Position numbers and translations under genes: made by a program
Assembly (NCBI GenBank): GCA_050015375.1
Contig: JBEKBN010000006.1
Location: 454 to 64,453 of the forward strand
From: Minisyncoccia bacterium
GTDB taxonomy: Bacteria > Patescibacteriota > Minisyncoccia > 2-02-FULL-40-12 > IGHO2-01-FULL-4-A
Direction: 5' to 3'
DNA length: 64,000 nucleotides
Notes under the pieces: model-generated
What the model was told of the DNA's origin: nothing
What the model saw: the letters and a program-made list of their open reading frames with translations, nothing else
Database searches by the model: none
In this document: piece after piece, positions 209-60,049 of the stretch
Position numbering within the stretch: the stretch's first letter is position 1
Layout of the letters: every line of letters begins with the position of its first letter

Positions 209-292
209 TGGCAAAAATTTTTCCCGATTTCGTTTCACGAAATCGAGGATCCTCGATTTTTCAAAGAAAAATCGGGACAATTTTCAAAAAAA

Positions 293-653: not shown

Positions 654-1214
654 ATGGATAATATCACACCACAACCCCAGACCCAACACAGAAATAGTTT
701 CGGCGGAAATCGCGGCGGATTTGGCGACCGCGGACCAAGACGCGACAATCGCCCGCCTCGGGAAAAATCCGAATTCGAGACGGCGGTTCTTGATATTGCC
801 CGCGTAACCCGCGTTACCAAAGGCGGTAAACGATTCAGTTTTCGGGCGACGGTGGCGCTTGGCGACGGCAAAGGCCGAGTTGGCGTCGGCGTAGCCCAGG
901 GCATCGATGTCGCCCAGTCAATGGCCAAGGCGTCTCATCAGGCCAAAAAGAACATGATCACGGTCAACATCGTCAAAGAGACCATTTCCCATGAAATAAC
1001 CTGCAAATACAACAGCGCCGTGGTCATGCTCAAACCGGCCCGTCTGGGAAATGGCGTCAAAGCCGGCGGTCCGGTCAGGGTCATTGCCAAACTTGCCGGC
1101 ATCGCCAACATCACCGCCAAATTAATTGAACGAACCGGCAACAAGATCAATATTGCCCGGGCGACGATCGAGGCCCTAAAAAATTTAAAAATCAAAAATC
1201 AAAATGCAAAATGA
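654..1214 (+). CDS. rpsE: 30S ribosomal protein S5, with a roughly 40-aa Gly/Arg-rich N-terminal extension
   Basis: Core VTKGGKRFSFRATVALGDGKGRVGVG...MLKPARLGNGVKAGGPVR is typical S5. The N-terminus carries GGNRGGFGDRGPRRDNRPPRE. Confidence 0.9.
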   Translation: MDNITPQPQTQHRNSFGGNRGGFGDRGPRRDNRPPREKSEFETAVLDIARVTRVTKGGKRFSFRATVALGDGKGRVGVGVAQGIDVAQSMAKASHQAKKNMITVNIVKETISHEITCKYNSAVVMLKPARLGNGVKAGGPVRVIAKLAGIANITAKLIERTGNKINIARATIEALKNLKIKNQNAK

Positions 1215-5848: not shown

Positions 5849-6574
5849 ATGTATTTATCCGTCATTATTCCCGCCTACAACGAAGAAAAAAGGATCGGCA
5901 AGACGCTTTTGGCGGTGGATGAATATCTATCGGGACAAAAATACGATTCTGAGATTATCGTGGTGGATAATAATTCAAAGGACAAAACGGCCGATATTGT
6001 CAATAATTTAAAATTTAAAATTTATAATTTAAAATTAATTTCCCAGCCAATTCAAGGCAAAGGCAATGCCGTAGCCAAAGGAATGCTTGAAGCATGGGGC
6101 GATTATCGGGTTTTCATGGATGCCGACAATTCCACCTCCATAGATCATATTGAAAAAATGTGGCCGTTCATTTCGACCGGTTACGATGTTGTCATAGGAT
6201 CGCTCGCGGTCAAAGGCGCAAAGATTCTCCAAGGCGGAGCCGAACCGTGGTGGCGAGTGCTTTTGGGGAAACTCGGCAACAAATGGATCCAGATCTTCGC
6301 GGTCTGGGGAATAAACGATACCCAAAGAGGTTTCAAAATGTTCACGGCCAGAGCGACGGAAAAAATATTTCCGAAATTGACAATATTTGGCTGGGGATTT
6401 GATGTCGAAGTTTTGGCTTTAGCAAAAAAATACGGATACAAAATAAAAGAAATTCCGATAATCTGGGATAACGACCCAAATTCAACGGTGAATTTCTGGG
6501 CCTATCCACAAGTTTTAATGCAAACCGTAAAAGTCAGATGGAATCTATTGATCGGGAAGTATAATAGCCATTAG
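5849..6574 (+). CDS. family 2 glycosyltransferase (dolichyl/polyprenyl-phosphate sugar transferase-like)
   Basis: N-terminus SVIIPAYNEEKRIGKTL...IVVDNNSKDKT...DADNS carries GT2 DxD-type motifs. Confidence 0.8.
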   Translation: MYLSVIIPAYNEEKRIGKTLLAVDEYLSGQKYDSEIIVVDNNSKDKTADIVNNLKFKIYNLKLISQPIQGKGNAVAKGMLEAWGDYRVFMDADNSTSIDHIEKMWPFISTGYDVVIGSLAVKGAKILQGGAEPWWRVLLGKLGNKWIQIFAVWGINDTQRGFKMFTARATEKIFPKLTIFGWGFDVEVLALAKKYGYKIKEIPIIWDNDPNSTVNFWAYPQVLMQTVKVRWNLLIGKYNSH

Positions 6575-8260: not shown

Positions 8261-9015
8261 AGACATTAGTAGCAAACTGGAAAATGAATCCCCAAAAATT
8301 GGCTGAAGCCGAGGAACTTTTTGAATACACCATCGCCGAATCGGCCAAATATCCGAACGTCAAAACGATAATTTGTCCGCCGTTCGTCTTTATTGAGGAA
8401 TTGTCCAAATTTCTACAAACTACAAACTACAAACTACAAACTAGCATCGGTTCCCAAAATATTTTTTGGGAATCCAAAGGAGCATATACCGGTGAGATTT
8501 CCACCGAGATGCTGAAAAATTTCGGCGTTAGCCATGTTTTGGTCGGCCATTCCGACCGGCGATATGTCATCGGCGAAACGGACGAGGAAATTAATAAAAA
8601 AATAAAAGCCGCGCTTTTGACCGATATAACCCCGGTGCTTCTAGTTGGCGAGAGAGAAGGCGAGAACCGCGAAGAAATTTTGAGGAAACAATTATCCGCT
8701 GACCTGGCCGGCGTTTCGGCGCCCCATTTGGGGAAGATCCTTTTTGCCTACGAACCGGTCTGGGCAATAAGCACAAATCCGAATGCAAAACCCGATACGC
8801 CCGAAAACACTTTGAAGGCGATCACATTTATAAATAATCTTCTTGCTATCAGCTATAAACTACCAGCCATAAGCTGTCTCTATGGCGGTTCGGTCAATGA
8901 AAAAAATATCGTTGATTTTCTCAAACATCCGGAAATCTCCGGCGCCGTCGTCGGCGGAGCCAGTTTGCGAAAAGAAGAATTTGGAAAAATGTTAAACTTA
9001 GTTTCAACAATTTAA
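8257..9015 (+). CDS. tpiA: triosephosphate isomerase
   Basis: ANWKMNP...VGHSDRRYVIGETDEEI...GGAS motifs. Overlaps the dedA stop (ATGA). Contains an in-frame heptamer-repeat insertion. Confidence 0.9.
   Translation: MKTLVANWKMNPQKLAEAEELFEYTIAESAKYPNVKTIICPPFVFIEELSKFLQTTNYKLQTSIGSQNIFWESKGAYTGEISTEMLKNFGVSHVLVGHSDRRYVIGETDEEINKKIKAALLTDITPVLLVGEREGENREEILRKQLSADLAGVSAPHLGKILFAYEPVWAISTNPNAKPDTPENTLKAITFINNLLAISYKLPAISCLYGGSVNEKNIVDFLKHPEISGAVVGGASLRKEEFGKMLNLVSTI
8413..8447. repeat. (CTACAAA)x4 heptamer tract inside tpiA, in frame, encoding LQTTNYKLQT
   Basis: Four perfect CTACAAA units plus a degenerate fifth (CTAGCAT). They map to a loop that is shorter in B. subtilis TPI. Confidence 0.7.
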
Positions 9016-19891: not shown

Positions 19892-20983
19892 GTGAAAATC
19901 GCATTGGTTCAGGACTATCTTGTCGAATACGGCGGGGCCGAGAGGGTTCTTCAGGCGCTTTGCGAAATTTTTCCGGAGGCGCCGATCTACACTTTACTTT
20001 ATGATGAGAAAGCCAGCGGCCGGGTTTTTCGCGACCGCGAGATCCACACCTCCTTTATCCAAAAGATTCCTTTCGCCCGGCGACACCACCGATTATTCGC
20101 GGCTTTGATGCCTTTGGCCATCGAACAATTCGATCTGTCGGAATTTGATTTTGTTTTATCGAACTCGGCTTCCTTCGGCAAGGGCGTCATCACCAAACCC
20201 AAAACCACCCACATCAACTACTGCATGACCCCGACAAGATTTCTTTGGGACGACAGTCATCGTTTTATTGATGAGTTCAAATTGCCTTGGCTGATCAGAA
20301 AAATGACACCAGCCGTCATCGCTTATCTTCGGATCTGGGACAAAGAGGCCGCCTTGCGGGTGGACGAATTCGTCGCTATTTCCAACCATGTAAAAACCCG
20401 GATCGCCAAATATTATCAGCGCGACGCGAAAGTCATCACTCCGCCGATAGATGTCAGCAAATATCATATAAGCCCCGAAGTTGACGAATATTTTTTAATG
20501 GTCGGCCGCTTAGTTGCCTACAAACGCTTTGACCTGGCGATCCAGGTTTTCAACGCCATCGGCAAACCATTGAAGATCGTCGGCGATGGGCCGGAGCGAT
20601 ATCGGCTTGAAAAAATGGCCAAAAAAAATATCGAATTTCTCGGTCTTGTCTCCGATGATAAATTGCCCGGACTCTACAGCCGCGCTCAAGCGGTGATTTT
20701 CCCCCAGGAAGAGGATTTCGGTTTGGTGCCGCTGGAAGCGATGGCTTCGGGCCGGCCGGTCATCGCGTATCGCGCCGGCGGGGCGCTGGAAACGGTCATT
20801 GATGGCCGGACTGGAATATTTTTTGACGAGCAAACGGAAATCTCGATGGCTTTGGCCATCAGCAGATATTACGAAACCAAATTCAATCCCAACGTTATCC
20901 GGGCCCACGCTTTGGATTTCGACAAATCCATCTTCAAGGAGAAAATTCTCAAATTGCTTGCCCCCACACTCAATCGCGATTGA
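19892..20983 (+). CDS. family 4 (group 1) glycosyltransferase
   Basis: GTG start. GT-B fold with C-terminal motif FPQEEDFGLVPLEAMASGRPVIAYRAGG. The stop codon is supplied by a palindromic element. Confidence 0.85.
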   Translation: MKIALVQDYLVEYGGAERVLQALCEIFPEAPIYTLLYDEKASGRVFRDREIHTSFIQKIPFARRHHRLFAALMPLAIEQFDLSEFDFVLSNSASFGKGVITKPKTTHINYCMTPTRFLWDDSHRFIDEFKLPWLIRKMTPAVIAYLRIWDKEAALRVDEFVAISNHVKTRIAKYYQRDAKVITPPIDVSKYHISPEVDEYFLMVGRLVAYKRFDLAIQVFNAIGKPLKIVGDGPERYRLEKMAKKNIEFLGLVSDDKLPGLYSRAQAVIFPQEEDFGLVPLEAMASGRPVIAYRAGGALETVIDGRTGIFFDEQTEISMALAISRYYETKFNPNVIRAHALDFDKSIFKEKILKLLAPTLNRD

Positions 20984-20992
20984 GTGTGGGGG
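20961..20992. repeat. palindromic element CCCCCACACTCA-ATCGCGAT-TGAGTGTGGGGG (copy 1 of 5) at the GT4 gene 3' end
   Basis: Perfect 12-bp arms. The TGA of the right arm serves as the gene's stop codon. Family copies are at 25056, 55616, 58240 and 60021. Confidence 0.75.
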
Positions 20993-21048: not shown

Positions 21049-23559
21049 ATGCCTCCATCGCGGAATATTCTTGAGGCATTATTTGACATTCGACCGATAA
21101 CCAGATCGGGGTCTCTTGATTTTGAAAAAATCGGCAAGGTCAAAGGCCGCATTAACCTCAAGAAGAAAAAAATTGTTGAGATCGAGACAGTTTCGATCGT
21201 TAAAAAACCGCCATTAAAAAAAACATTGAGCCGCGAGGGTATTTCCAGAGAATTCGAAAGAACAATTGCCGAACCGGTGAATGTGGCCGTAGAGTTGGCC
21301 AGATTCGGCGGCAAGCTTCACGATTACGTCCGAAAAGAAAGACCGGTTGAGATCGAACCGCAGCCGGAGGAAAAGATCGTCGTCGAGAGTCGGGATCTGG
21401 AGAATTTCTGGAAAAGGGAAGACCTATTCGAACAAAGCGAAGCTGAGAGAGAAATTGAAACAGAAGCAGAACCCAAGATCGAACCCGAGATCGCTCTCGC
21501 CGTCGCCGAAAGTTACCACAGCCCAGCCGAAAGAGAGATCGAAGCCGTCCTGGATCTTTATAGAAGAAATAAAATTTCTGTCGTTTCATCGCCAAAGCCG
21601 GAAGAGGAAACTTTTCATCAAAAAAAACCGAAAACGATTCGCTACGCGATGATAGCCCTGGGATTTTTAGTGCTTTTGGGCGCGTCTTTCGCTTATCGGG
21701 GCGGAGAAGATCTGAAGAACAATGTCATGGTCAATGGCGGCAAAGCCGTCGCCAATTTGGAACAAGCCAAGGCGAATCTGGCTAATTTTAATTTTGCCAA
21801 CGCCGCCGACAATTTCGCTTCGGCCTATGACGATTTCGGCAGCGCTTCCGACAATCTCAACAGCATGGGCGCGTCGTTCTTGTCGAATTTCAGCGATCTG
21901 CCCGGACTCTCGAAGGTCAAATCAGCGAACAATTTGGTTTTGGCCGGCCAGCACATTTCCAAAGCCGGCGAGAACTTGGCTTTGGCGTTCAGCACTTTGT
22001 CGAAAACGAATTTTTTGGGCAACAACCCGCTTTCAAAATTGGTTTCCGAATTCAAACAAGTTTTGGTCAACGCCAACGCCAACATCACCGATGCTCAAAA
22101 TTTGGTCGCCGATATTGACGCCTCGGCCCTGCCGACCGACAAACAGCAGTTGTTCATTGATTTCAAAGCAAAAATTCCGGAATTTCAGCAATACATCGGC
22201 AATGCCATTGATTACTCCGATTTCCTGTCGGGCGTCATCGGGGGCGCGGGCAAGACCGAGAAAAAATATCTGATGCTTCTCCAAAACACCAGCGAGCTTC
22301 GGGCGACCGGCGGTTTTCCCGGTTCATATGCCCTGGTAACTTTTGAGAACGGTTCACTGAAAAGCGTCAGTGTTGACGATGTCTATAATATTGACGGCCA
22401 GTTAAAAGTTAATATCATTCCGCCGATCCCGCTTCAGGCGATAACGCCCAACTGGGGCATGCGGGACGCCAATTGGTTCGCTGATTTTCCGGCTTCGGCC
22501 AAAAAAGTGGAGGAATTTTACAAAATGGACACAGCCGGCGCCACCGGCACCGCCGGCGACGACGTTGATGGTGTGTTCTCCATTACGCCCCAGGTCATCG
22601 GCCAAATTCTGGATGTCATCGGCGGACTCGATATGCCCGCGTACGGAATAAAATTGGATTCAAAAAATTTCATCACCCAGATCCAGAGTCAGGTCGAATA
22701 CGGCGCCAACCGCTCCCAGCCCAAAACCATCGTCAAAGACCTTCAGCCGCTGTTATTCGCTAAACTTGCCGCCCAGGATTCCTCGAAGTGGGCCGACATT
22801 TTTAAAATTTTGGTTCAAGCCGTCGGCCAAAAACAAATTCTGGCGTATTTTAACGATGCCAAATTGGAGAACATGGCTCTTCAGAACGGTCTGGGCGGGG
22901 AGGTCAGAACAACGGCTGATGATTATTTGCAAATTGTTTTTTCGAATGTCAAAGGTTCAAAAACAGACGCCGTCATTGATAATAAATTTGATCTCAAGAC
23001 CGATTTGACGGGTGGCACGATAGCGAACACATTGACCATCACCCGGACCCACAACGGCGGCGACAGCCAGTATGGATTTTACAACAAGGTCAGTCCGACA
23101 TATGTCCGTGTCTACGCGCCGTTGGGCTCGGTTCTGGGAAGCGTGACTGGCGATTCCATCACCGATTATCGTCCTTTGATCGGCTACGCGGATTACAATT
23201 TTAAAACCGACCCGAATCTGGGCGCGGTTGAAGATACCACCATTCACCCGTTCAAAGGCGTGGATGTTTTTCAGGAATCGGGTAAAACGGTTTTTGGTTT
23301 TTGGCTGGTCTTGGATCCGAAACAAACCAAATCGGTCACTGTCAGCTACGTCTCGCCGGTTCCCGTGAATACCGGCGGTTATAGCTTGCTTTGGCAAAAA
23401 CAATCAGGCACCGGTAGTGACCCGATATCATTTCAACTGACCTTGCCCGAGGGCGAAAAGATCGCGAGCGCGTCCGACAATTCAACGATTGCCGGAAACA
23501 AATTGAATATAAATTCCGACCTCTCGGTTGACAGGGAAATAAATCTGCAAATCAAATAG
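21049..23559 (+). CDS. large membrane-anchored protein (DUF4012-like) with an acidic EPEIE-repeat N-terminal region
   Basis: 836 aa with a cytoplasmic E/P-rich repeat region, one TM (IALGFLVLLGASF) and a large extracytoplasmic domain containing the ELRATGGFPGSY motif. The family assignment is tentative. Confidence 0.6.
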   Translation: MPPSRNILEALFDIRPITRSGSLDFEKIGKVKGRINLKKKKIVEIETVSIVKKPPLKKTLSREGISREFERTIAEPVNVAVELARFGGKLHDYVRKERPVEIEPQPEEKIVVESRDLENFWKREDLFEQSEAEREIETEAEPKIEPEIALAVAESYHSPAEREIEAVLDLYRRNKISVVSSPKPEEETFHQKKPKTIRYAMIALGFLVLLGASFAYRGGEDLKNNVMVNGGKAVANLEQAKANLANFNFANAADNFASAYDDFGSASDNLNSMGASFLSNFSDLPGLSKVKSANNLVLAGQHISKAGENLALAFSTLSKTNFLGNNPLSKLVSEFKQVLVNANANITDAQNLVADIDASALPTDKQQLFIDFKAKIPEFQQYIGNAIDYSDFLSGVIGGAGKTEKKYLMLLQNTSELRATGGFPGSYALVTFENGSLKSVSVDDVYNIDGQLKVNIIPPIPLQAITPNWGMRDANWFADFPASAKKVEEFYKMDTAGATGTAGDDVDGVFSITPQVIGQILDVIGGLDMPAYGIKLDSKNFITQIQSQVEYGANRSQPKTIVKDLQPLLFAKLAAQDSSKWADIFKILVQAVGQKQILAYFNDAKLENMALQNGLGGEVRTTADDYLQIVFSNVKGSKTDAVIDNKFDLKTDLTGGTIANTLTITRTHNGGDSQYGFYNKVSPTYVRVYAPLGSVLGSVTGDSITDYRPLIGYADYNFKTDPNLGAVEDTTIHPFKGVDVFQESGKTVFGFWLVLDPKQTKSVTVSYVSPVPVNTGGYSLLWQKQSGTGSDPISFQLTLPEGEKIASASDNSTIAGNKLNINSDLSVDREINLQIK

Positions 23560-23577
23560 GCGACCCTCGGTATTTTA

Positions 23578-23603
23578 GGCGGATCTGGCAACCGCTTTTT
23601 TTA
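23578..23603 (+). terminator. putative Rho-independent terminator
   Basis: GGCGG-ATCTGGCAA-CCGC followed by T8. Confidence 0.5.
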
Positions 23604-23630
23604 TCGTTCTTATCGTGGTAGTTTTATCTC

Positions 23631-25460
23631 ATGCAAAACATCCGCAATTTTTGTATAATTGCTCACATAGACCATGGCAAAAGCACCTTAGCCGACCGGC
23701 TTTTAGAATTGACGGGCACAATTGAAAAGCGCAAAATGCACGAACAATTTCTGGACCAGATGGAATTGGAGCGTGAAAGAGGGATTACCATAAAACTCCA
23801 ACCCGTCCGCATGCAATACGGCGAATATATTTTGAATTTAATAGATACGCCGGGCCATGTGGATTTCACCTACGAAGTTTCTCGTTCGCTGGCGGCGGTG
23901 GAGGGTGCGATTTTACTTGTGGATGCCGCCAAAGGCGTTCAAGCCCAGACACTGGCCAATTTGCATTTGGCGCAAAGACAGAATTTGGTCATTATTCCGG
24001 TCATCAACAAAATTGATCTACCCAATGCCAGAGTGGCCGAAGCCGAAGAAGAAATTTCCAATTTGCTTGCCGTTGAACCGGACGAAATTATCAAGATTTC
24101 CGCCAAGACCGGTGAAGGCGTGGAGAAAGTTCTTGAAGCGGTTGTCGAAAAAATTCCCCCGCCATCTACTCACTACTCACTACCAACTACCAACTATCCT
24201 CGCGCCCTGATTTTTGATTCCGCTTTTGACGCTTACAAAGGCGTTGTCGCTTATGTCAGGATTTTTGACGGCAACTTCCGGGCCGGAGACAAAATTAAAC
24301 TTTTCGCTTCCAAAGCCGAAGCCGAGATAATCGAAGTTGGTCAGTTTAAACCCGCCTTGAGCAAAACCGATTCTATCGGCGAAGGTGAGATCGGCTATAT
24401 CGCCACCGGTTTGAAAAATCCCGGCGATGTCCGCGTTGGTGATACGGTTTTCTCTACAAACTATAAACCACAAACTACAAACTTTTCACCCCTTCCCGGC
24501 TACAAAGAACCGATGCCGGTGGTTTTCGCCAGTTTTTTTCCGGAAAAAGGGGAAGATTATGATCTGCTGAAAGACGCGCTGGGAAAACTGAAATTGACCG
24601 ATGCCTCGCTGACTTATGAACCGGAATCTTCACCAGCCCTCGGCCGGGGTTTTCGCCTTGGCTTTCTGGGTATGCTCCACACCGAGATCATCAGTGAGCG
24701 GTTGCGCCGGGAATTCAAATTGTCGCTGATAATTTCCTCGCCGTCGGTGGAATATCACATTTTGAAAAAGAACGGCCAAGAAATTCCCATCCGTTCGGCA
24801 TCAGAGATGCCCAATCCGAGTTATATTGATAAAATTTTCGAACCGACGGTTGTGCTGGAATTGTTGAGCCCATCTGAATATCTCGGTTCATTGATGAAAC
24901 TTCTTTCCGAAATGCGAAGCTCTTATCTAGCCACTGATTATTTGACCAAGGAAATCGTGATTTTAAAATACAAAGTCCCGCTGACTGAAATTGTGACCGA
25001 TTTTTATGACAAACTGAAAAGCGTCAGTTCCGGTTACGCTTCGATGAGTTATTCACCCCCACACTCATTAGATGAGTGTGGGGGCAAGCAGGATGGCTAT
25101 GAGGAATCTGATCTGGTTCGGCTGGATATTTTGGTGGCCGGGGATTTGGTTGAACCGTTTTCGAGAATGGTTCCGAGATCGCGCGTTCATGACGAAGGCA
25201 AGAGAATTGTCGAGAAGTTGAAGAAAATAATTCCGCGGCAATGGTTCGCGGTGGCGATCCAAGCGGCCATCGGCGGGAAAATAATCGCTCGGGAAACCAT
25301 CAGCGCTTTGCGAAAAGATGTTACCGGTTATCTCTACGGCGGGGATATTACCCGCAAGAAAAAATTATTGGAGAAGCAAAAGAGGGGGAAGGCGAGGATG
25401 AAAGAGGAAGGCAAGGTGAATATTCCGCAGAATGTGTTTCTGGAGATGCTGAAAAAGTAG
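23631..25460 (+). CDS. lepA: elongation factor 4 (LepA)
   Basis: IRNFCIIAHIDHGKSTLADRLL...DTPGHVDF and a C-terminus matching E. coli LepA. Contains three in-frame repeat insertions. Confidence 0.92.
   Translation: MQNIRNFCIIAHIDHGKSTLADRLLELTGTIEKRKMHEQFLDQMELERERGITIKLQPVRMQYGEYILNLIDTPGHVDFTYEVSRSLAAVEGAILLVDAAKGVQAQTLANLHLAQRQNLVIIPVINKIDLPNARVAEAEEEISNLLAVEPDEIIKISAKTGEGVEKVLEAVVEKIPPPSTHYSLPTTNYPRALIFDSAFDAYKGVVAYVRIFDGNFRAGDKIKLFASKAEAEIIEVGQFKPALSKTDSIGEGEIGYIATGLKNPGDVRVGDTVFSTNYKPQTTNFSPLPGYKEPMPVVFASFFPEKGEDYDLLKDALGKLKLTDASLTYEPESSPALGRGFRLGFLGMLHTEIISERLRREFKLSLIISSPSVEYHILKKNGQEIPIRSASEMPNPSYIDKIFEPTVVLELLSPSEYLGSLMKLLSEMRSSYLATDYLTKEIVILKYKVPLTEIVTDFYDKLKSVSSGYASMSYSPPHSLDECGGKQDGYEESDLVRLDILVAGDLVEPFSRMVPRSRVHDEGKRIVEKLKKIIPRQWFAVAIQAAIGGKIIARETISALRKDVTGYLYGGDITRKKKLLEKQKRGKARMKEEGKVNIPQNVFLEMLKK
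24166..24200. repeat. heptamer tract (CTACTCA x2, CTACCAA x2, CTATCCT) in frame inside lepA, encoding STHYSLPTTNYP
   Basis: Five 7-nt units with a CTA anchor. Absent from E. coli LepA at the equivalent PAPQGDPDAPLQ position. Confidence 0.65.
24454..24488. repeat. heptamer tract (CTACAAA/CTATAAA/CCACAAA/CTACAAA) in frame inside lepA, encoding TNYKPQTTNF
   Basis: Same unit as the tpiA tract. About 7 extra residues relative to E. coli LepA. Confidence 0.65.
25056..25084. repeat. palindromic element CCCCCACACTCA-TTAGA-TGAGTGTGGGGG (copy 2) inserted in frame in lepA, encoding SPPHSLDECGG
   Basis: Perfect 12-bp arms with a 5-nt loop. Adds about 11 residues relative to E. coli LepA between GYAS and SDLV. 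Confidence 0.75.
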
Positions 25461-25645
25461 CGAGCCCCTCACTTCCCGACCTGGGCTCACCGGATTACTT
25501 TCCGGGGACTTCGCATCGCCCAGCGAGCGATTTGCTCATCCGGTTGTCGGTTGCCGTCGCTGACTTGATCACAAGTCAGACCGTGCCGACGGCACCGACA
25601 ACGGCCCCTGAAAGCAATCCAGTTCGCAGAAAGTGAGGGGCTCGC
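25460..25645. repeat. GC-rich 186-bp element bounded by a perfect 14-bp inverted repeat (GCGAGCCCCTCACT / AGTGAGGGGCTCGC); candidate structured RNA or MITE
   Basis: Starts at the lepA stop codon. The interior has nested hairpins (CTGACTTG-ATCA-CAAGTCAG, GTGCCGACGGCAC). GC content is far above the local average. Confidence 0.5.
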
Positions 25646-25696
25646 TTCTGCTTTACATTCCGCCAATTCTTGCAGGTATTGCATAAATATGTGATT

Positions 25697-25725
25697 CGTG
25701 GTAGTATATGGAAATCGCAATGAAA
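25697..25725 (+). promoter_or_regulatory. sigma-70-like promoter (TTGCAT-17 nt-TGgTAGTAT)
   Basis: Consensus-like -35, 17-nt spacer and extended -10, located 64 nt upstream of the 25789 ORF. Confidence 0.5.
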
Positions 25726-25788
25726 GCATTCGGTTTTGAGCAATAAATGAGCCGAAAAGCTCTTTGAAAAAAGGAAGGAGAAACTCAG

Positions 25789-26322
25789 ATGGTAACATTT
25801 ATTGTCTTGGCCGTAGTTGGTGTTATGGTAGGCGTTGCTTCTCAAAAGGGCTGTGGCCGAGGAGAAAAGGTTTTATTTGGGTTTGTGGGGCTGGTGTTTG
25901 GTTTGCTACTGGCAGTGGTTACCGCTCTTAAGATTGGGGCGTTATTGCCAAATTATCACGAGACCCAAGTCATCGAAAAAACTGAGCTTGTGGCGTTAAA
26001 TAACGGAACAACTATTGAGGGAAGATTTTTTCTCGGGTCCGGCCAAATCGATTCTCAGCCTGCTTACTTTTTCTACTACAAGGTTGCTAATGGTGGAATA
26101 AAACTTGGAACCTTGTCAGCAGAAGGTGTCACAATATTTGAGGAAAAGCGAAGTGATGCCTATATGGAAAAATCGAGCGAAGAGGATTATCCTAAAATAA
26201 CCGGAATTTGGGGATATCTCACATTTCCTGGCGTAACACGTAAGTGGGAGTGCGTAAACTTTCATATCCCAGAAGGCAGTATCCAGAGAAGTTTCGACTT
26301 GGATTTGAAGAACATGAGGTGA
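25789..26322 (+). CDS. hypothetical membrane protein
   Basis: SD AAGGAAGGAG. Two N-terminal TM helices followed by a soluble domain. No known motif. Confidence 0.5.
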   Translation: MVTFIVLAVVGVMVGVASQKGCGRGEKVLFGFVGLVFGLLLAVVTALKIGALLPNYHETQVIEKTELVALNNGTTIEGRFFLGSGQIDSQPAYFFYYKVANGGIKLGTLSAEGVTIFEEKRSDAYMEKSSEEDYPKITGIWGYLTFPGVTRKWECVNFHIPEGSIQRSFDLDLKNMR

Positions 26323-36412: not shown

Positions 36413-39400
36413 TTGTTTATGAAAATAAACAAACTTGGGGGGGGGCTTAAGTGGTCGATTTTCGCAACTCTTTTAGCAACCGCTCTAGTAGGCGGATTTT
36501 TTGTACACAATGCCAAGGCGACTGTTAGCACCTGTTCTGATATCACCCTTGGTGTGACTCAAATCACTGCTATCCAAACCTATGCCACCGCTGACAATAC
36601 TTTTGCCGACGGCTGGAAATGGGTTTTCAATGTTACCGTTCCGACTTGCCAAACACTTCTTCAAATGAGATTCGGTGACTGGGTTGGAACCGCTGGCACC
36701 ATTCCAGCCGCGACAAATATTCAATTTTATTCTAATCAATCTACAAATGCAGCCGATGAGGCGCACGCAATAATTATCAGTGCCGCTAATACATATAGTG
36801 GTTTGATGATCCTTTCTGGTGCTGATCTTGATGGGTCAACACCCGGCACCCAGATCCAAATAACAGTTGAAGCGAGAGTTCCAATTGATTCAGCTGGTGG
36901 TTCTTACTCGACAAGTTATGGCATACAATCGAATCCTGCACCGACCGTTCTATTCGTTCTCCCTATCGGTAACATCAATGTTGCTAATGGCACCGCTCTT
37001 GATGCTGTAGGTTTGCCGGCTAATGCTACCGTAGGTTTGAGCAACGGAAACACTCAATTAATGGCAGTCGTTTGGGATGGTGGTACGCCAACTTATGACG
37101 GCACAACAGCTGGCACCTATGCTTTTACAGGTGCATTGACTTTACCTGCTGGTGTTACTAATCCGGACGGCAAAACAGCCAACGTAAACGTAATTGTGGA
37201 ACCAATACCTACCCACACCATTACCTCCTCTGTTGTAGGCGCATCTGTCTTTGGTCCGAAACACGGCACGATTTCTCCTCTCGGTGCAACGACCGTGAAT
37301 GATGGCGACAGCCAGACCTACACGATTACGCCCGATACCGGCTACCAGATTCTTGAGCTTAAAGTGGACGGTGTTTCCACAACGCCGGCCGACAGTTATA
37401 CTTTCACCAATGTCACAACTGACCATACCATTGCCGTGAGCTTTGCCCCGATTACTTATACCTTAACCTATTCCGCCGGAGCCCATGGTTCCATTGTTGG
37501 AACTTCGCCCCAGGCAGTAAATTACGGCGCTGATGGAACAGCCGTGACTGCGACGCCAGCCGAGGGTTATCATTTCGTAGGTTGGAGCGATCAGTCAACA
37601 ACTAATCCGAGAACCGACAACGATGTAACCGGCAATATTGATGTCACTGCCAGTTTTGCAGTTAACCAATATACAATTACTTTTGGTTCAAATGGTGGCT
37701 CAGCCGTAGCTTCCATAACTCAGGATTATGGCTCACCGGTTACTCCACCAGACGATCCAACTCGAGCAGGTTATACCTTCGCCGGTTGGGTTCCAACAGT
37801 TCCGGCAACGATGCCATTAGGCGGAGCGAGTTTAGTTGCCCAGTGGACTGCTGTTGTTGCACCAATCACCCACACTCAAAAGGATCTGACGACTTGGGTT
37901 CCGATTCAGGGTGGAATAACTGCCGATGTAACAATTTCAACAGTAAATAATAAATTCCACGCAGACGGAGTTCCAACTGGATATACTTTGGTGTATTACC
38001 CTAATGTTGGAACTTATGATACCTACACTGGAGAAGTTTATCCTGTAGAGGGCACTAATATGGATCTTCCAATGTCAGATGATTTGAATCGCGGTAAAGA
38101 AGATTACTGCAATAATGGATTTAATCCACACGCAATTCACTGTGATGGCGCTAAGTTGTGGCTTGTTCCAACCGAAGACATATCAACAACAATTAATTCT
38201 GATGGAAGCCAGACATTGGTTGGAGATTGGAATACGATCGCTCCGAATATTTTGTTCGAGACAAATCTGATAACTTATCAAGCAACTCCGATCACTCACA
38301 CCCAAAAGGATCTGAACACCTGGGCTCCACTTCCAAATGGAATAACTGCCGATGTTACATATGACCTGACCGGAGATACTTTCCAAGCGACCGGAGTTCC
38401 ACCTGGATATACTTTGGTGTATTATCCTAAACCCGCAACTTGGACCGGATTGGTCTATTCCGTCATTGGTAATAGCATGACCCTTCCAATGCCAGGTGAT
38501 TTGAATGGTAGTCCATCATCAGATTACTGTACCGTTAGAAATAGTGAGGGGAATTTGGAAAATCCGCATGAAATAATTTGCCAAGGAGCCGCGTTGTGGC
38601 TTGTTCCAACGGGTGAATTAACAGATAACCACGATGGGACTTATACAATTAATTGGGGCACTGCTTCTGATATTTTGTTCGAGACAGACCTGATAAATTA
38701 CACAGCTCCGACTTCTACCCCAAGCGCTAATCTTATTCTCACCGCTCCAGATGCCACAACTATTAATCAATCTGCTTTAGTTCCTGAAACGAGCAACGGA
38801 ATACCCACTGGCGGAAACTCAACAGTTGATACTGCCATCAATGGCCTTAGCCCGATTGCGGTGAGGTTGCAGAATACCGGCGATGCCGCTTCTGCTAATG
38901 TTCGCATCAGCCCGATTGGCGACGCTTCTGGGCACATTCAGTTATGGGCAAAAGATACTTTAGGTAATTGGTATGACATCAATGTTACTGGCTGGGGGCC
39001 AGCCGAAGGTTTTCCAGTGCCAGCCCCATACGATGCCACTACTAATGTCTATGCGATTTCCGACGAAGTAGGATCTTATGACATGATAGCTAATTTGATT
39101 TTGGTAAGTAATTCATCACTCGTTGCGCACACAAAGGGAATAATTACCGTTGCCCCTGCCCCGACCCTTTTGTTTGATACCGGCATCACTGATGGTTCCA
39201 CTATCTTACCGGGTACACTTGCAACTCAGTTCACGATTACAACTACGGGTGTCCCGGGTACGATGCACACGCTTGGGTTAACGGGCACCACAGCAACTCC
39301 AGCTCTTGCAGATGGCAATTATGACTTTAAGCTTGTGGCAACCTCAGACGTGCAAGCCGCTTTGACTTCTTATTTTGGAGCTAAGGCAGGATGGACTTCG

Positions 39401-46683: not shown

Positions 46684-47758
46684 ATGACTACTTTGCGTGA
46701 AGAATTGAATAGTATGCAAGATAAGTGCCGTGCCGTGCGGCACCGTCTTTGACCTAGGCGAATCGCGAGAAAAAATCAAGCAAATTGAAACCGAAATGCA
46801 AGCGCCCGGTTTTTGGAATAACAACGAAAAAGCCGGTAAAGCGTCAAAAGAATTAAATGATCTAAAAACCGAAGTCGAATTCTGGGAAACAACGATGCTG
46901 GAACTGGACGAATTCGGAAAGATGTCCGACGAGGAAATTCAGAAAAAAGAAATCGAAATCCGAGCTTTCAAAAAGAATTTCGACAAAGAATACATAAAAA
47001 TATTTTTGTCAGGAAAATACGACAAAGGCAATGCCCTTTTGTATGTCTATTCCGGCGCCGGCGGCGTGGACGCCCAGGATTGGGCTTCAATGCTTTTGCG
47101 GATGTATCAGAAATACGCCGAGCGCGAGGGTTATGGCTGGACGCTTTTGCAACAGTCCTTTGGCGAGCAGAACGGCACCAAAAGCGCCGTCGCCGAGATC
47201 ACCGGCCGCTGGGCTTACGGAAAATTGCGGGGCGAGGCCGGTGTTCATCGTTTGGTCAGGATTTCACCCTTCTCGGCCAAGTCGTTGCGCCACACATCGT
47301 TCGCTCTCGTGGACGTGCTTCCCGAGATTGAAGATGTTAAAATTAATATTGACCCGAAAGATCTGCGAATTGATACTTTTCGGTCATCGGGACCGGGCGG
47401 ACAGAATGTCAACAAACTGGAAACGGCCGTCAGGATCACCCATATTCCGACGAATCTGACCGTTGCCGTCCAATCGGAGCGTTCTCAAGCCCAGAACAAA
47501 GCCAAAGCCATGACGCTCTTGCAATCCCGTCTGGCGCAATTGATGGAAGAGAAAAAAATTCAGGAAATTTCCGAGCTTCGGCTTGACACCAAAGACAGCG
47601 CCATTGAATGGGGTAGTCAGATCCGTTCCTATGTCATTCATCCTTACAAGATGGTCAAAGACCACCGGACCGAGGTTGAGACGACGCAGGTTGACAAGGT
47701 TCTGGAAGGGGAGTTGGATGAATTCATAGAAAAAGAGTTGGTGGTTGGTAGGTCGTAG
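46684..47758 (+). CDS. prfB: peptide chain release factor 2, with a programmed +1 frameshift: join(46684..46749,46751..47758)
   Basis: Frame 0 reads MTTLREELNSMQDKCRAVRHRL then CTT TGA C (46747-46753). The +1 frame continues DLGESREKIKQ...SGPGGQNVNK...GSQIRSYV. Confidence 0.88.
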
Positions 47759-47780
47759 TTTGTAGATTGGAACGCCAAAA

Positions 47781-47816
47781 CTACTTACTACTCACTACTT
47801 ACTACAAACTAACTTG
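47781..47816. repeat. heptamer tract (CTACTTA/CTACTCA/CTACTTA/CTACAAA/CTAACTT) abutting the ftsE TTG start
   Basis: Five 7-nt CTA-anchored units ending CTAACTTG, the same junction as at the galT TTG start. Confidence 0.6.
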
Positions 47817-55256: not shown

Positions 55257-56543
55257 ATGACCGTTTCTGATATAATTAAACAAATGGAGGAAAAAGAAAA
55301 TGAATTGAAATTCCCCAACGGGTTTTTGTGGGGGACGGCCACGTCAAGCTATCAGATAGAAGGTGGAATAAATAATTGCGACTGGGCCCAAGCGAATCGC
55401 GGTCCCTCGACAAGTTCAGGACATCAGATTCCTGATGCTGGGCGCGCTTGCGATAGTTACAATAAATACGAGGAGGATTTTGATATTGCCAAATCGCTTG
55501 GCCAGAACGCCCACCGTTTCTCTATAGAATGGGCGCGGATCGAGCCGGAAGAGGGAAAATTCGACGAGAAAGAAATCGAGCATTATAAAAAAGTGCTGGA
55601 CGCCTTGCGAACTCGCCCCCACACTCAAGATTTGAGTGTGGGGGGAACGGGATTGGAACCATTCGTGACCCTTTGGCATTTCACGCTTCCGGTTTGGTTC
55701 GCGAAAATGGGCGGTTTCGAAAATCCGAAATCACCGGAAATATTTTCCCGATATTGCGAATTTGTCGTTGGCAAAATGGGGGATAGAGTTCACCCTGTTA
55801 AATCCGGCGAAGCCGGTGCCGCGGAGCGGCAATTTAACAGGGTAAAATTCTGGGTAACTATAAACGAACCGATGGTTTATGCCTCGAATGGTTACCGAAA
55901 AGGTCAATGGCCGCCGTTTGAAAAAAATATTTTCAGGTTCATGAAGGTTATCAAAAATCTAATCATGTCGCACAATCTAGCATATGACAAAATCAAGAAC
56001 ATTGATCCTTCGGCTCAGATCGGCATCGCTAAAAATAATATAAATTTTGAGGCAAATTGGAACCCAATCAATCGCCTCTTGTCAAGCTTTCTGAATTTTT
56101 TCTGGAATCGCAGATTTTTGAATAAAATTTCACAGGATTTCATCGGTTTGAATTATTATTTCCACAAAAAGTTCGGGGATAGGGCGAAGTATCCGAAATC
56201 CGACATGGGTTGGGATATTTATCCGAAAGGAATTTATAATTTGCTGATGGAACTGAAAAAATATGGTAAACCGGTTTACATCACCGAAAACGGATTGGCG
56301 GACAAAGAAGACAAACAACGCGCCGATTTCATCCGTGAACATTTGAAATGGGTTTCGAGAGCGATCCGGGATGGCTCTGACTGCCGCGGATATTTTTATT
56401 GGTCGCTTCTGGATAATTTTGAGTGGGCGGAGGGTTACAAACAAAAATTCGGTTTGGTGGAAATTAATTTTGAAACAATGGAAAGAAAGATCAGGAATTC
56501 AGCGTGGGAATTTGCAAAAATTTGTAAAAATAACGAAATATGA
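55257..56543 (+). CDS. glycoside hydrolase family 1 (beta-glucosidase-like) carrying two in-frame palindromic insertions
   Basis: FLWGTATSSYQIEGG, TINEP (acid/base) and ITENGLA (nucleophile). Carries insertions RTRPHTQDLSVGG and HPVKSGEAGAAERQFNRV relative to canonical GH1. Confidence 0.88.
   Translation: MTVSDIIKQMEEKENELKFPNGFLWGTATSSYQIEGGINNCDWAQANRGPSTSSGHQIPDAGRACDSYNKYEEDFDIAKSLGQNAHRFSIEWARIEPEEGKFDEKEIEHYKKVLDALRTRPHTQDLSVGGTGLEPFVTLWHFTLPVWFAKMGGFENPKSPEIFSRYCEFVVGKMGDRVHPVKSGEAGAAERQFNRVKFWVTINEPMVYASNGYRKGQWPPFEKNIFRFMKVIKNLIMSHNLAYDKIKNIDPSAQIGIAKNNINFEANWNPINRLLSSFLNFFWNRRFLNKISQDFIGLNYYFHKKFGDRAKYPKSDMGWDIYPKGIYNLLMELKKYGKPVYITENGLADKEDKQRADFIREHLKWVSRAIRDGSDCRGYFYWSLLDNFEWAEGYKQKFGLVEINFETMERKIRNSAWEFAKICKNNEI
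55616..55644. repeat. palindromic element CCCCCACACTCA-AGATT-TGAGTGTGGGGG (copy 3), in frame in GH1
   Basis: Perfect 12-bp arms. Encodes RPHTQDLSVGG, inserted before the conserved GxEPFVTLxHxxLP block. Confidence 0.75.
55793..55842. repeat. second, distinct GC-rich palindromic insertion (CCCTGTTAAAT-28 nt-ATTTAACAGGG), in frame in GH1
   Basis: 11-bp perfect arms. The loop itself holds two hairpins (CCGGC-GAA-GCCGG and GCCGC-GGA-GCGGC). Encodes about 16 extra residues between GDRV and KFWVTINEP. Confidence 0.65.
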
Positions 56544-57427
56544 TCTGGATCCTTCTGGCAATTCTGTCCCAATTCATCTCCGCCGGCGTTTACATGGCCG
56601 ACAAGTATCTTGTTGGACCCAAAGCCATCGGCCGGCCGGTGGTTTACGCCATCTATGTCTGCTTGCTTTCGGGTTTCGTTTTGGTTTTATTGCCTTTTGG
56701 CGTGGTTTTGCCGCTGACCTGGCCGCTAATTGCGCTTTGTCTGGGGATCACGGTTGCTTTCACGACTTCCCTATTATTTCTTTATTCCGCTCTTAAAACT
56801 TCTGATGTTTCGGATGTGGCGCCGGTCATGGGCGCGATCTCGGCCGTGGCCACATTGGCTTTCGGACTGTATTTTTTGGATTCAATGCTGCCCAGATTAT
56901 TTTTCATCGGCTTTCCGCTTTTGATATTCGGGACTTTTCTGATGTCGCGTTTTCGGTTTAATAAGAAATCCTCCTTTTATGTTATCGCCGCCGGAATTCT
57001 TTTCGGACTTTCATCGATTTTAATAAAAATATTGTTCGGAGAAACCTCATTTCTTAACGCGTTTTTCTGGTCGCGGATGACGAATGTTTTCGGCGCGATA
57101 ATTTTACTTTTGTGGCCGGCGAATTTCAAAGCCGTGTTCAGCAATGTCAAAAGTTCGACCGGCGGAACGAAAATTTTGGTCGTCGGCAACAAAACGCTGG
57201 CCGGTATCGCCTATCTCTTATCGCTGGTGGCAATAAAACTCGGCAATGTTACCGTCGTCAACTCATTGGCCGGTTTTGAATTCGTTTTTATTTTGCTTCT
57301 GGCTTTTATTTTCACTTATAAATTTCCGAAATATTTTCAAGAGGCCGTTCACAACAAAAACGACCGGCTGAAAAAGATCTGGGCTTCGGGTTTGATAATA
57401 ATCGGGTTCGTGATCATGTTCCTATGA
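56540..57427 (+). CDS. hypothetical polytopic membrane protein (about 10 TM)
   Basis: 295 aa and strongly hydrophobic. No motif. Confidence 0.5.
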   Translation: MIWILLAILSQFISAGVYMADKYLVGPKAIGRPVVYAIYVCLLSGFVLVLLPFGVVLPLTWPLIALCLGITVAFTTSLLFLYSALKTSDVSDVAPVMGAISAVATLAFGLYFLDSMLPRLFFIGFPLLIFGTFLMSRFRFNKKSSFYVIAAGILFGLSSILIKILFGETSFLNAFFWSRMTNVFGAIILLLWPANFKAVFSNVKSSTGGTKILVVGNKTLAGIAYLLSLVAIKLGNVTVVNSLAGFEFVFILLLAFIFTYKFPKYFQEAVHNKNDRLKKIWASGLIIIGFVIMFL

Positions 57428-58509
57428 AGAAGCACAAAAAATATTTTTCAATTCCCATTATCCTTTTCTTGATCCTTTTGGTTTTAACCTTGGCTTGGAA
57501 TTTGCTTTCCATCAGGCCGGTTCCCGAAAAAGTAAATTACGGCGTTTCGTTCAGCGTTTTTCATTCCAACGAACTCAATCTGGATTGGAAAAAAACATAT
57601 TTGGCGATCTTAGACGATCTTAAGGTCAGGAACTTGCGGCTTACCGCTCATTGGCCGCTGACCGAGCCGGCCGACGGCAAATACGATTTCTCAGAATTGG
57701 ATTTTCAGATAAACGAAGCCGATAAACGCGGCGCGACCTATATTCTGGCCGTCGGCCGGCGCCTGCCCGGCTGGCCGGAATGCCATGTGCCGGATTGGGT
57801 TATGAATCAAGAATCACAAATCACGAATCAAGGTGAAAAAACTGATTTTGAGAACCAAAAGTTATTGGAATATATTCAGACGACCGTTGAGCGTTACAAA
57901 AATTCCCCCGGTCTGAAATATTGGCAAGTCGAGAATGAACCGTTCCTAGGATTTTTCGGCCGTTCGAGCTGCCAATTGACCGACGAGAATTTTTTCAAAC
58001 AGGAGATCGCTCTTGTCCATAAACTCGATCCGACCCATCCGGTTCTGGCGACCGACAGCGGCGAGTTCGGCTATTGGTATCAGGCCTACCGCGACGGTGA
58101 TGTTTTCGGCACCTCCTTGTATCTGTATGTTTGGTGGCGGGCGCTTGGCATCGGCCCCTTGCGTTATCCCATCGGGCCGTCGTTTTTCCGAGTGAAGCAA
58201 AATGTGGTTGATTTTATCGGTTGTGTCTTGGGCGATTCACCCTCACACTCAATTTTTGAGTGTGAGGGCAAGCCGACAATTCTCATTGAACTGGAAGCCG
58301 AGCCCTGGCTTTTAACACCGATCGTTGACGCGCCGATGGCGACTCTCCTTGACCGGATGGGGATTGATAAATTCGAAACCATGATCCAAACCGCCAAAGA
58401 AGCCGGTTTTGGCGACCAATATCTCTGGGGCGCCGAGTGGTGGTATTGGATGGAACAAAATGGCCATCCGGAATTTTGGCAGGCGGCGAAGCAACTTTTT
58501 AACCAATAA
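57424..58509 (+). CDS. glycoside hydrolase, clan GH-A (GH5/GH113-like)
   Basis: Signal/TM N-terminus, then YWQVENEPF (acid/base NEP) and LIELEAEPW (nucleophile Glu). The family is not resolved. Confidence 0.55.
   Translation: MKKHKKYFSIPIILFLILLVLTLAWNLLSIRPVPEKVNYGVSFSVFHSNELNLDWKKTYLAILDDLKVRNLRLTAHWPLTEPADGKYDFSELDFQINEADKRGATYILAVGRRLPGWPECHVPDWVMNQESQITNQGEKTDFENQKLLEYIQTTVERYKNSPGLKYWQVENEPFLGFFGRSSCQLTDENFFKQEIALVHKLDPTHPVLATDSGEFGYWYQAYRDGDVFGTSLYLYVWWRALGIGPLRYPIGPSFFRVKQNVVDFIGCVLGDSPSHSIFECEGKPTILIELEAEPWLLTPIVDAPMATLLDRMGIDKFETMIQTAKEAGFGDQYLWGAEWWYWMEQNGHPEFWQAAKQLFNQ
58240..58268. repeat. palindromic element variant CCCTCACACTCA-ATTTT-TGAGTGTGAGGG (copy 4), in frame in the GH-A hydrolase gene
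   Basis: Both arms carry a compensatory change (C to T paired with G to A), so pairing is preserved. Encodes SPSHSIFECEGKP. Confidence 0.75.
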
Positions 58510-60020: not shown

Positions 60021-60049
60021 CCCCCACACTCATGCATGAGAACGGGGGC
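60021..60049. repeat. degenerate intergenic copy (copy 5) of the CCCCCACACTCA palindromic element
   Basis: CCCCCACACTCATGCATGAGAACGGGGG has a left arm identical to the family and a decayed right arm. Confidence 0.5.

Follow-up and report, generated by a model that had tools for sequence, protein, structure and literature searches.

The stretch of DNA analysed here, hereafter called the window, is a 64-kb segment of contig JBEKBN010000006.1 from an uncultured Minisyncoccia bacterium of groundwater, and the element under study is a 35-nt tract of heptanucleotide repeats that lies in frame within its lepA gene. The open reading frame (ORF) concerned contains the Pfam domains GTP_EFTU, GTP_EFTU_D2, EFG_III, EFG_C, and LepA_C (5.6e-42 for LepA_C) and matches elongation factor 4 (EF4) of Thermus with E = 8e-193, residues 2-607 being covered; by this homology, its product is LepA/EF4. 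The nearest named relatives of this LepA are Yanofskybacteria (Patescibacteria, or candidate phyla radiation, CPR). The closest strain, L035, comes from a Joint Genome Institute (JGI) metagenome and shows 97% protein identity and 94% DNA identity over 5.6 kb. Between the two lepA genes, the non-synonymous divergence (dN) is 0.016 and the synonymous divergence (dS) 0.30 (dN/dS ~0.05), and on these values lepA is an intact, constrained gene under strong purifying selection. Three repeat-derived inserts are present in lepA, i.e. two heptamer arrays and one palindrome, in agreement with a preliminary description of this DNA. The gene and its inserts are as follows.

23631..25460, + strand: lepA, the host ORF, 609 aa, elongation factor 4, intact and with all five domains
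24166..24200, + strand: linker heptamer tract, in frame, LepA residues 179-190, taking the place of the ancestral xGDPxxPL linker
24454..24485, + strand: second lepA array, CTACAAA CTATAAA CCACAAA CTACAAA CTTT, residues ~275-285 (STNYKPQTTNF), in a loop of domain II, 4 aa more than in Thermus
25056..25084: third lepA insert, a palindrome and not a heptamer array, CCCCCACACTCAT-TAG-ATGAGTGTGGGGG, adding 11 aa (SPPHSLDECGG)

The linker tract consists of five 7-nt units, CTACTCA CTACTCA CTACCAA CTACCAA CTATCCT, and its limits and units agree to the base with those first described. It thus contains at least three head-to-tail copies of a 7-nt unit, as do simple sequence repeats (SSRs) of the short tandemly repeated repetitive (STRR) type, and no more than two adjacent units are identical. 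Tandem Repeats Finder splits the tract into two overlapping period-7 arrays, one at 24166-24183 (CTACTCA, 2.6 copies, 100%) and one at 24179-24196 (ACTACCA, 2.6 copies, 100%). The lag-7 identity of the tract is 0.88, and that at other lags is 0.31 or less. In the window as a whole, a lag-7 scan found eight period-7 tracts versus 0.0 in Markov shuffles, and no tracts with periods of 8-12 were found by the same scan. The two-unit degenerate pattern CTACNNACTACNNA, with at most one mismatch, has 14 matches in the window versus 0.78 expected, and none of 100 shuffles reached 14. The tract was also recovered, at the same length, in the independent assembly of L035 from another metagenome (94% nt identity), which excludes an assembly artefact. 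The shortness of the tract (35 nt) is all that speaks for chance periodicity or an artefact, and, against the excess of pattern matches and lag-7 tracts and the recovery in L035, this explanation has virtually no probability.

The preliminary description had assigned the linker tract and an array in tpiA to one repeat family, and both indeed fit the unit C-T-A-C-[ACT]-[ACT]-A. Five arrays of this family are present at four loci in the window, so that one unit family occurs at several unlinked loci above chance. In addition to the two arrays in lepA, the following were identified.

8413..8443, + strand: tpiA array, perfect (CTACAAA) x4.4, encoding LQTTNYKLQTS, a 12-residue insert compared with the triosephosphate isomerase (TIM) protein of the related locus L034
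47737..47765, - strand: reverse array at the end of a release-factor gene, with CTACAAA CTACGAC CTACCAA CCACCAA on the minus strand
47777..47812, + strand: forward array, CTACTTA CTACTCA CTACTTA CTACAAA, intergenic, before an ATP-binding cassette (ABC) ATPase gene predicted as ftsE

Among the 21 units in the five arrays, positions 1-4 and 7 are conserved at 90-100% and positions 5-6 vary; a conserved core is thus combined with degenerate positions, as in (GGGANTN)n. Single CTACNNA units show no enrichment in the window outside the arrays, and a role of CTACNNA as a word used throughout the genome, be it for uptake or for binding, was therefore rejected. A comparison of the flanks of the five arrays revealed no conserved flanks and no target-site duplications. 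In the forward unit all frames are free of stop codons, and the reverse complement, TTTGTAG, contains one, which accounts for the orientation of the intragenic copies. Read on the plus strand, the reverse array supplies the final codons (ELVVGRS) and the TAG stop codon of the release-factor gene (46730..47758). This array and the forward array form an inverted pair with 11 nt between them; the pair (47737-47812) could form an imperfect hairpin, possibly a terminator.

The remaining period-7 tracts of the window have other units; like a second insert in tpiA, they lie inside ORFs and have a period of 7 or 14.

1176-1218: AAAATCA/AAAATGC units, at the 3' end of ORF 654..1214
5996-6040: AATTTAA units, in a GT2 glycosyltransferase gene
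57800-57833: GAATCAA units, in a glycosyl hydrolase-like ORF
8846-8872: second tpiA insert, unit CTACCAG/CCATAAA, encoding ISYKLPAIS, absent from the TIM protein of L034

The position of the linker tract in the protein can be read from solved EF4 structures, in which the junction of the G domain and domain II is IPPP-KGDPEAPL-KALIFDS in Thermus, KGDPQKPL in Aquifex, and EGDPEGPL-QALIIDS in E. coli. In the window, the junction is IPPP-STHYSLPTTNYP-RALIFDS, where STHYSLPTTNYP (codons 24165-24200) comprises LepA residues 179-190. Twelve residues are present instead of the expected eight, the ancestral motif is wholly gone, and the net gain over the near-universal xGDPxxPL linker is four residues (+12 nt). 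Since members of the same CPR clade retain linkers of the ancestral type (GGDPAKPF in P0062 and RGSSDRPF in P0015, P0025, and P0035), the tract is a derived replacement. The preliminary description had placed the tract where other bacteria have the linker between the G domain and domain II, and the alignment with Thermus, Aquifex, and E. coli agrees with this placement; the event is not the simple insertion that was assumed, being instead the replacement of 8 residues by 12, and the E. coli peptide that was quoted, PAPQGDPDAPLQ, is slightly wrong, PDB chains 3CB4/3DEG reading PPPEGDPEGPLQ at that position. Conservation of the peptide among orthologues with non-repetitive coding, which would have argued against a repeat origin, was not found, and the peptide varies. 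In the relative P0004 (84% aa identity), the linker is RINFDSSA, with eight residues and no repeats, and P0003 carries a palindrome as long as the tract in its place.

In an AlphaFold2 model of LepA (mean predicted local distance difference test score, pLDDT, of 73), residues 183-185, 280-283, and 479-487 are coil with pLDDT <50, and all three lepA inserts fall in such low-confidence coil. The leucine residues encoded by the linker tract are specified by CTA, the rarest leucine codon of the genome (4%), which supports the view that the DNA repeat dictates the peptide and not the peptide the repeat.

Turnover at the arrays was assessed by comparison with one close strain, L035. The linker tract has the same length in both strains and differs by a single synonymous change (24179 A>T), with no non-synonymous change. 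The flanks show the same lack of change (2 differences in 173 nt), lepA being a mosaic of patches of low and high divergence, and selection on the tract was therefore not deduced, as equally invariant flanks leave the comparison without power. The second lepA array differs at three positions, all C/T differences, and the order of its units is A, A', B, A in the window and A, A, A, B in L035, which resembles reshuffling; the ~22 nt upstream of it are unusually diverged. A search of metagenome contigs with exact flanks and a variable gap yielded no population variants of the linker tract, and a protein-based scan of the same contigs returned no strain of the same species.

These results bear on the idea that the tract is a contingency locus, i.e. 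a slippage-prone heptamer switch whose frame shifts would turn lepA on and off. The unit is not a multiple of three, so that any single-unit slip shifts the frame, and phase variation driven by SSRs is well documented in other bacteria. Neither the long run of identical units nor the length polymorphism of phase-variable SSRs is seen here, however: at most two adjacent units are identical, and the length is unchanged in a strain with 94% nt identity. Moreover, the matches of all 120 homologues listed span at least 96% of the query, and lepA encodes a conserved translation factor with a dN/dS of ~0.05 and does not belong to the surface, restriction-modification, or host-interaction gene classes. 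The linker tract would thus not be a phase-variation switch, an explanation that we regard as very improbable.

DNA was gathered for ~70 related loci, and a census was made of 66 non-redundant CPR loci (650 kb), which were sampled around lepA and thus do not give a genome-wide estimate. Period-7 arrays numbered 54, whereas 12, 21, 4, and 1 arrays were found for periods 5, 6, 8, and 9, respectively. Of the 54 arrays, 43 lie in long open frames, a proportion (0.80) similar to that of random 28-nt segments (0.81). Their coding-strand composition is 43% A and 10% G. These data show that period 7 dominates among the short tandem repeats of the related CPR loci and that genes do not exclude such arrays. 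Together with the window, where seven of the eight period-7 tracts overlap ORFs, they also indicate that the mainly intergenic location typical of STRR-type SSRs does not apply.

The LepA linker is hypervariable among the 120 homologues listed, and many linkers are visibly heptamer-coded (TTNYKLQTTNCF, IANYRLPVTNSL, KTYNLTPSTLVS, SISDFQFPISDNF, and IPYTLDPKPSSF). A lag-7 identity of at least 0.75 was observed in 9 of the 53 listed loci at site 1, the linker (L016 among them not being a clean array), and in 14 of the 53, not de-duplicated, at site 2, the loop of domain II in which the second tract lies; at these two sites in the same loci, no lag other than 7 reaches 0.75. The array units found across lineages are CTACNAA, TTACCAN, CCTANAA, ATTTCCG, ACCCTAN, AAATTCG, AAGTTCA, AGCGACA, and AAATCTC. 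Unit pairs with at most one mismatch are more frequent within genomes (26%) than between them (8%; permutation p < 0.0005), also when the window is left out (25 and 6.6%, respectively; p = 0.0065). Examples are CCTANAA, which L034 has at its two LepA sites, and AATACNN, present three times over in L008 at different sites. A rule of one unit per genome is only partly true, as the units differ between the two LepA sites in both L036 and L067. These results show that particular loops of LepA are hot spots for arrays in many lineages, with largely genome-specific units.

Further loops of LepA, including the one after VRMxY (alignment columns 101-168), show long lineage-specific inserts of the heptamer type, at least two more loops being involved, with peptides such as KLEIGNWKLEI, ISNFQFPI, and SQIPNPKSQNPN. 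The length of LepA varies from 587 to 653 aa within one clade. Dense heptamer arrays are also present in Bacteroidota loci (L020-L029, Chitinophagaceae and others), which were found with the back-translated pattern NYKPQTTN, e.g. L021 2117-12958 and L026 9663-9727, and Niastella caeni has 12 heptamer arrays in 20 kb. The units in Bacteroidota include AAACCAC and AAACTAC, their likeness to the CPR units being partly a selection effect of the search pattern, and they often occur as inverted pairs able to form long intergenic hairpins.

Array-bearing and ancestral linkers are interleaved in a neighbour-joining (NJ) tree of LepA, and presence or absence at orthologous sites is polymorphic with the frame kept, as is expected of hairpin-type repeats. 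L033 and L097 have 33 nt of (ACTACNA)n where L095 and L096 (87% DNA identity) have the ancestral 21-nt CGCGGAAGCTCCGATAGGCCA (RGSSDRP), and P0004 is without the tract. L033 and L097 group together in the array and in ~40 nt upstream of it, contrary to the rest of the gene; recombination therefore moves the array allele in a patch of ~100 nt. L045 and L046, the backbones of which are 94% identical, have quite different arrays of equal length at LepA site 2, inside a divergent patch of ~90 nt. Divergence between close strains clusters in such ~90-nt patches on array-bearing loops (L045 6770-6860 versus L046; window 24432-24487 versus L035), and the patches take in synonymous sites of the conserved RVGDT codons just upstream. 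The sequences suggest patchwise recombination or error-prone repair at the arrays.

The tracts of the window and of L033/L097 have the same 12-codon length and register, and L033 lepA has ~70% DNA identity to that of the window over the gene. Across four units, the core (CTAC and the last A) matches at all 20 sites, synonymous positions included, whereas only one or two of the eight sites at positions 5-6 match (Fisher p = 7e-6 to 7e-5). The idea that the tract was recently transferred between L033 and the lineage of the window was rejected, since flank identity (0.68-0.80) is not raised above the gene-wide 0.70. In L019, two adjacent cores are both TTAC, and neighbouring units of the window tract have TCA,TCA and CAA,CAA in common. 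Such paired changes of adjacent units point to intra-array homogenisation, which may proceed by slippage or conversion at constant length.

The identity of the core between genes that share only ~70% of their nucleotides, with positions 5-6 varying freely, is also what would be expected if CTAC..A were a selected cis-element, e.g. a platform on unstructured, G-less mRNA or single-stranded DNA for a protein with a 7-nt footprint (of the cold-shock or S1 type), or if a longer linker rich in S, T, Y, P, and N tuned EF4. The tract is G-less and predicted to be fully unpaired, it shows no non-synonymous change relative to L035, and CspB binds heptamer direct repeats with one protein per heptamer (review in PMC4679880). 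On the other hand, close relatives manage without the tract (P0004 with its non-repeat linker, P0003 with its palindrome), unrelated units occupy the same site in other lineages, the low divergence from L035 extends into the flanks and carries no information on selection, and the family is also represented in tpiA and in an intergenic spacer, without any shared context. We consider a functional element of this kind quite unlikely. The tract was also rejected as an RNA element: the Rfam search of 23000-26000 with E up to 1 gave no match, the region folds no better than shuffles (z = -0.08), and promoter and terminator scans found nothing at the linker tract.

Small elements of another kind are present in the same gene. 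The palindrome at 25056-25084 belongs to a dispersed family, CCCCCACACTCA-(3-8 nt)-TGAGTGTGGGGG, with 10 arm matches in the window versus 2.85 expected. Copies are located at 20961-20992, 25056-25084, 55616-55644, and 58240-58268, and half-sites at 37867-37878 and 60021-60032; besides the copy inside lepA, which is identical in L035, copies lie inside ORFs 55257..56543 and 57424..58509, and one overlaps the stop codon of ORF 19892..20983. This palindrome has the inverted-repeat structure of hairpin-type elements, such as small dispersed repeats (SDRs), repetitive extragenic palindromic (REP) sequences, or miniature inverted-repeat transposable elements (MITEs). The linker tract, a different element, is G-less, predicted to be unpaired, and without an inverted partner nearby, and does not belong to that class. 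The lepA gene of L035 contains in addition a 72-nt in-frame insert (L035 4208-4279, between window positions 23976 and 23977), which adds 24 aa (SRFVSDEVGGNKSRILDSDKSESG) and which the window lacks. It is a nested palindrome with an outer stem, CCCGATT...AATCGGG, around three hairpins, including AATCGAGGATCCTCGATT; a 54-nt relative at window 223-276 shares the outer stem and central palindrome, and the LepA of P0051 (69% identity) has a similar peptide where the insert lies. The insert looks like a miniature element that may have been mobile recently.

Taken together, the linker tract is probably a dispersed heptanucleotide SSR of the STRR type, with the unit CTAC-N-N-A, that has been fixed in frame and is tolerated in a permissive coil. 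The host lineage would generate period-7 arrays at a high rate, and the arrays would arise and stay periodic by replication or repair slippage and intra-array conversion, as adjacent units share derived changes (TCA,TCA and CAA,CAA here, TTAC,TTAC in L019). Selection would act only as a filter that passes stop-free coding orientations, net lengths of 3n, and sites in surface coil, and the encoded peptide would be a by-product of the DNA repeat. The linker tract most likely has no dedicated function in LepA.

Several observations weigh against this reading. Local slippage fails to explain why one and the same unit family has arrays at four unlinked loci in 64 kb without enrichment of lone units, and it leaves the greater likeness of units within than between genomes unexplained. 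The ancestral linker was replaced and not extended. Neutral decay does not predict the match between the window and L033/L097 at all 20 core sites and at only one or two of the eight spacer sites; the contrast between core and spacer points to core-anchored homogenisation or to a constraint at the level of DNA or RNA, either of which would leave this trace. Because the gain or loss of one unit by slippage breaks the frame, turnover that leaves the length unchanged would require conversion-like events, which are here hypothetical, and the stability of length was judged from one close strain.

A rival reading is that CTACNNA arrays were copied in trans, by ectopic conversion or template switching from other arrays or by a sequence-specific enzyme, and overwrote permissive loops instead of being generated by local slippage, the lepA tract being one such event. 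Such an active, templated system accords with the spread of one family over unlinked loci, with the genome-specific unit families of L034 (CCTANAA) and L008 (AATACNN), with the wholesale replacement of 21 ancestral nt by 33 nt in L033/L097, and with the rewriting of site 2 in L046 at constant length in a 94%-identical background; the nested palindrome of L035, absent from the window, indicates that small elements do move in lepA. However, the five arrays are without conserved flanks or target-site duplications, the units of L036 and L067 differ between the two LepA sites, and no candidate enzyme was identified. In addition, the L036 unit ATTTCCG resembles the ISD-type linker sequence ATTTCTGAC at site 1 of other loci, which may favour local birth, and ordinary homologous recombination, acting on an allele already present, accounts for the L033/L097 case. 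Templated copying is an improbable origin of the lepA tract. In its broader form, the proposal would be that the heptamer arrays of this CPR branch (relatives of Yanofskybacteria/Paceibacteria) constitute an active, genome-specific system that overwrites loops of housekeeping proteins (at least four loops of LepA, TIM, and the release factor), with alleles exchanged by recombination and the CTAC..A core kept by a trans-acting factor or by core-anchored conversion. We put this forward tentatively, as a doubtful possibility.

The reading as a tolerated, dispersed SSR invites comparison with heptamer families already known. Heptanucleotide STRR sequences of cyanobacteria are said to have been described by Mazel et al. 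1990. The CTAC family resembles these and the GGGGA(C/T)T repeats of Nostoc in having a 7-nt unit, short tandem runs, one family over many loci, either orientation, and some inverted pairs, and the STRR/Nostoc and CTAC families are alike in having no known function or dispersal mechanism. Unlike the STRR and Nostoc arrays, which are reported to be mostly intergenic, the arrays of the window are for the most part within ORFs and translated, and they reside in a CPR host with a compact genome and have an A/C/T-rich unit that, not being G-rich, has no G-quadruplex potential. Nostoc SDRs, according to what is reported of Elhai et al. 2008 (Genome Res 18:1484), are tiny repeats capable of lying in frame within conserved genes, and they occur in association with heptamer arrays; they are said to be defined hairpin elements of 21-27 nt, not tandem arrays. 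The setting in lepA, with heptamer arrays and a dispersed palindrome in one gene, is similar, but the linker tract itself is tandem and forms no hairpin. Among the LepA linkers of relatives, P0036 (TSNQ-PASLKLQRGEQPA-TSNQF), P0081 (TNFEF-RPPSGGS-NFEFKP), and P0085, seen as proteins only, seem to consist of a heptamer-coded peptide split by a second insert with a duplicated flank; these interrupted linkers recall the small elements that insert into Nostoc heptamer arrays.

Heptamers are the commonest class of long SSRs in bacteria, and a 7-nt slippage favoured by the polymerase footprint has been proposed, according to the passages of PMC4692102 and PMC4679880 that quote Mrazek 2007. Known families include GGGAATC in Xanthomonas, GGGGA(C/T)T in Nostoc (PMC4692102), and TAACTGA in Beggiatoa (PMC4679880). 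The (GGGAATC)n/(GGGANTN)n arrays of Xanthomonas (PMC4692102) likewise combine a conserved core with degenerate positions, the core being positions 1-4 and 6 in Xanthomonas and 1-4 and 7 here, and they too have typically ~4 units and occupy orthologous sites in related species with different sequences. They are intergenic, however, and their length varies extensively between close species, whereas the lepA tract is in frame and of fixed length. The TAACTGA repeats of marine Beggiatoaceae, Cyanobacteria, and Bacteroidetes (PMC4679880) are similarly dispersed within a genome and common to distant lineages, and stop codons in one orientation constrain their placement, as in the reverse CTAC array that provides the TAG of the release-factor gene. 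Unlike CTACNNA, which is stop-free in the three coding-strand frames and intragenic, forward TAACTGA contains stop codons and is nearly always found outside genes, usually just upstream of starts.

Borg repeats (PMC9879509) offer another parallel, in that A-rich tandem repeats at the DNA level add a probably disordered peptide to ORF products and are genome-specific. In Borgs, all units of ORF repeats are divisible by three and yield perfect amino-acid repeats, whereas here the unit has 7 nt, the peptide has a period of 7 residues per three units, and a net length other than 3n does not survive. Borg repeats are found in extracellular proteins, those described here in conserved housekeeping enzymes. 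Literature searches on heptamer repeats in CPR/Patescibacteria found nothing relevant in a searchable literature that is incomplete. Relative to the known heptamer families, the setting differs in that the arrays are translated, lie in conserved housekeeping genes, and occur in a CPR host, and the clade-wide placing of 7-nt arrays in protein loops is apparently undescribed.

A tandem repeat is expected to stay outside genes if its unit length is not divisible by three, yet in these CPR loci 7-nt arrays are found in ORFs as often as random positions are. They recur in loops of a universally conserved translation factor, where they displace a linker motif that has been kept from E. coli to Thermus and Aquifex. 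With many lineages, at least two hot-spot loops, and coexisting ancestral and array alleles, LepA provides an alignable system for the origin and dispersal of heptanucleotide families such as STRR, GGGAATC, and TAACTGA, and the same system bears on how repeat dynamics at the DNA level create new protein segments. In CPR proteins, peptides such as LQTTNYK, KLEIGNW, and KSQISNL are signatures of translated heptamer arrays, and array segments should be masked in marker-gene phylogenomic alignments because they and their flanks move by recombination. If an active overwriting system does exist in this branch, it would represent an undescribed route by which protein loops are diversified through repeats with a unit that is not a multiple of three.

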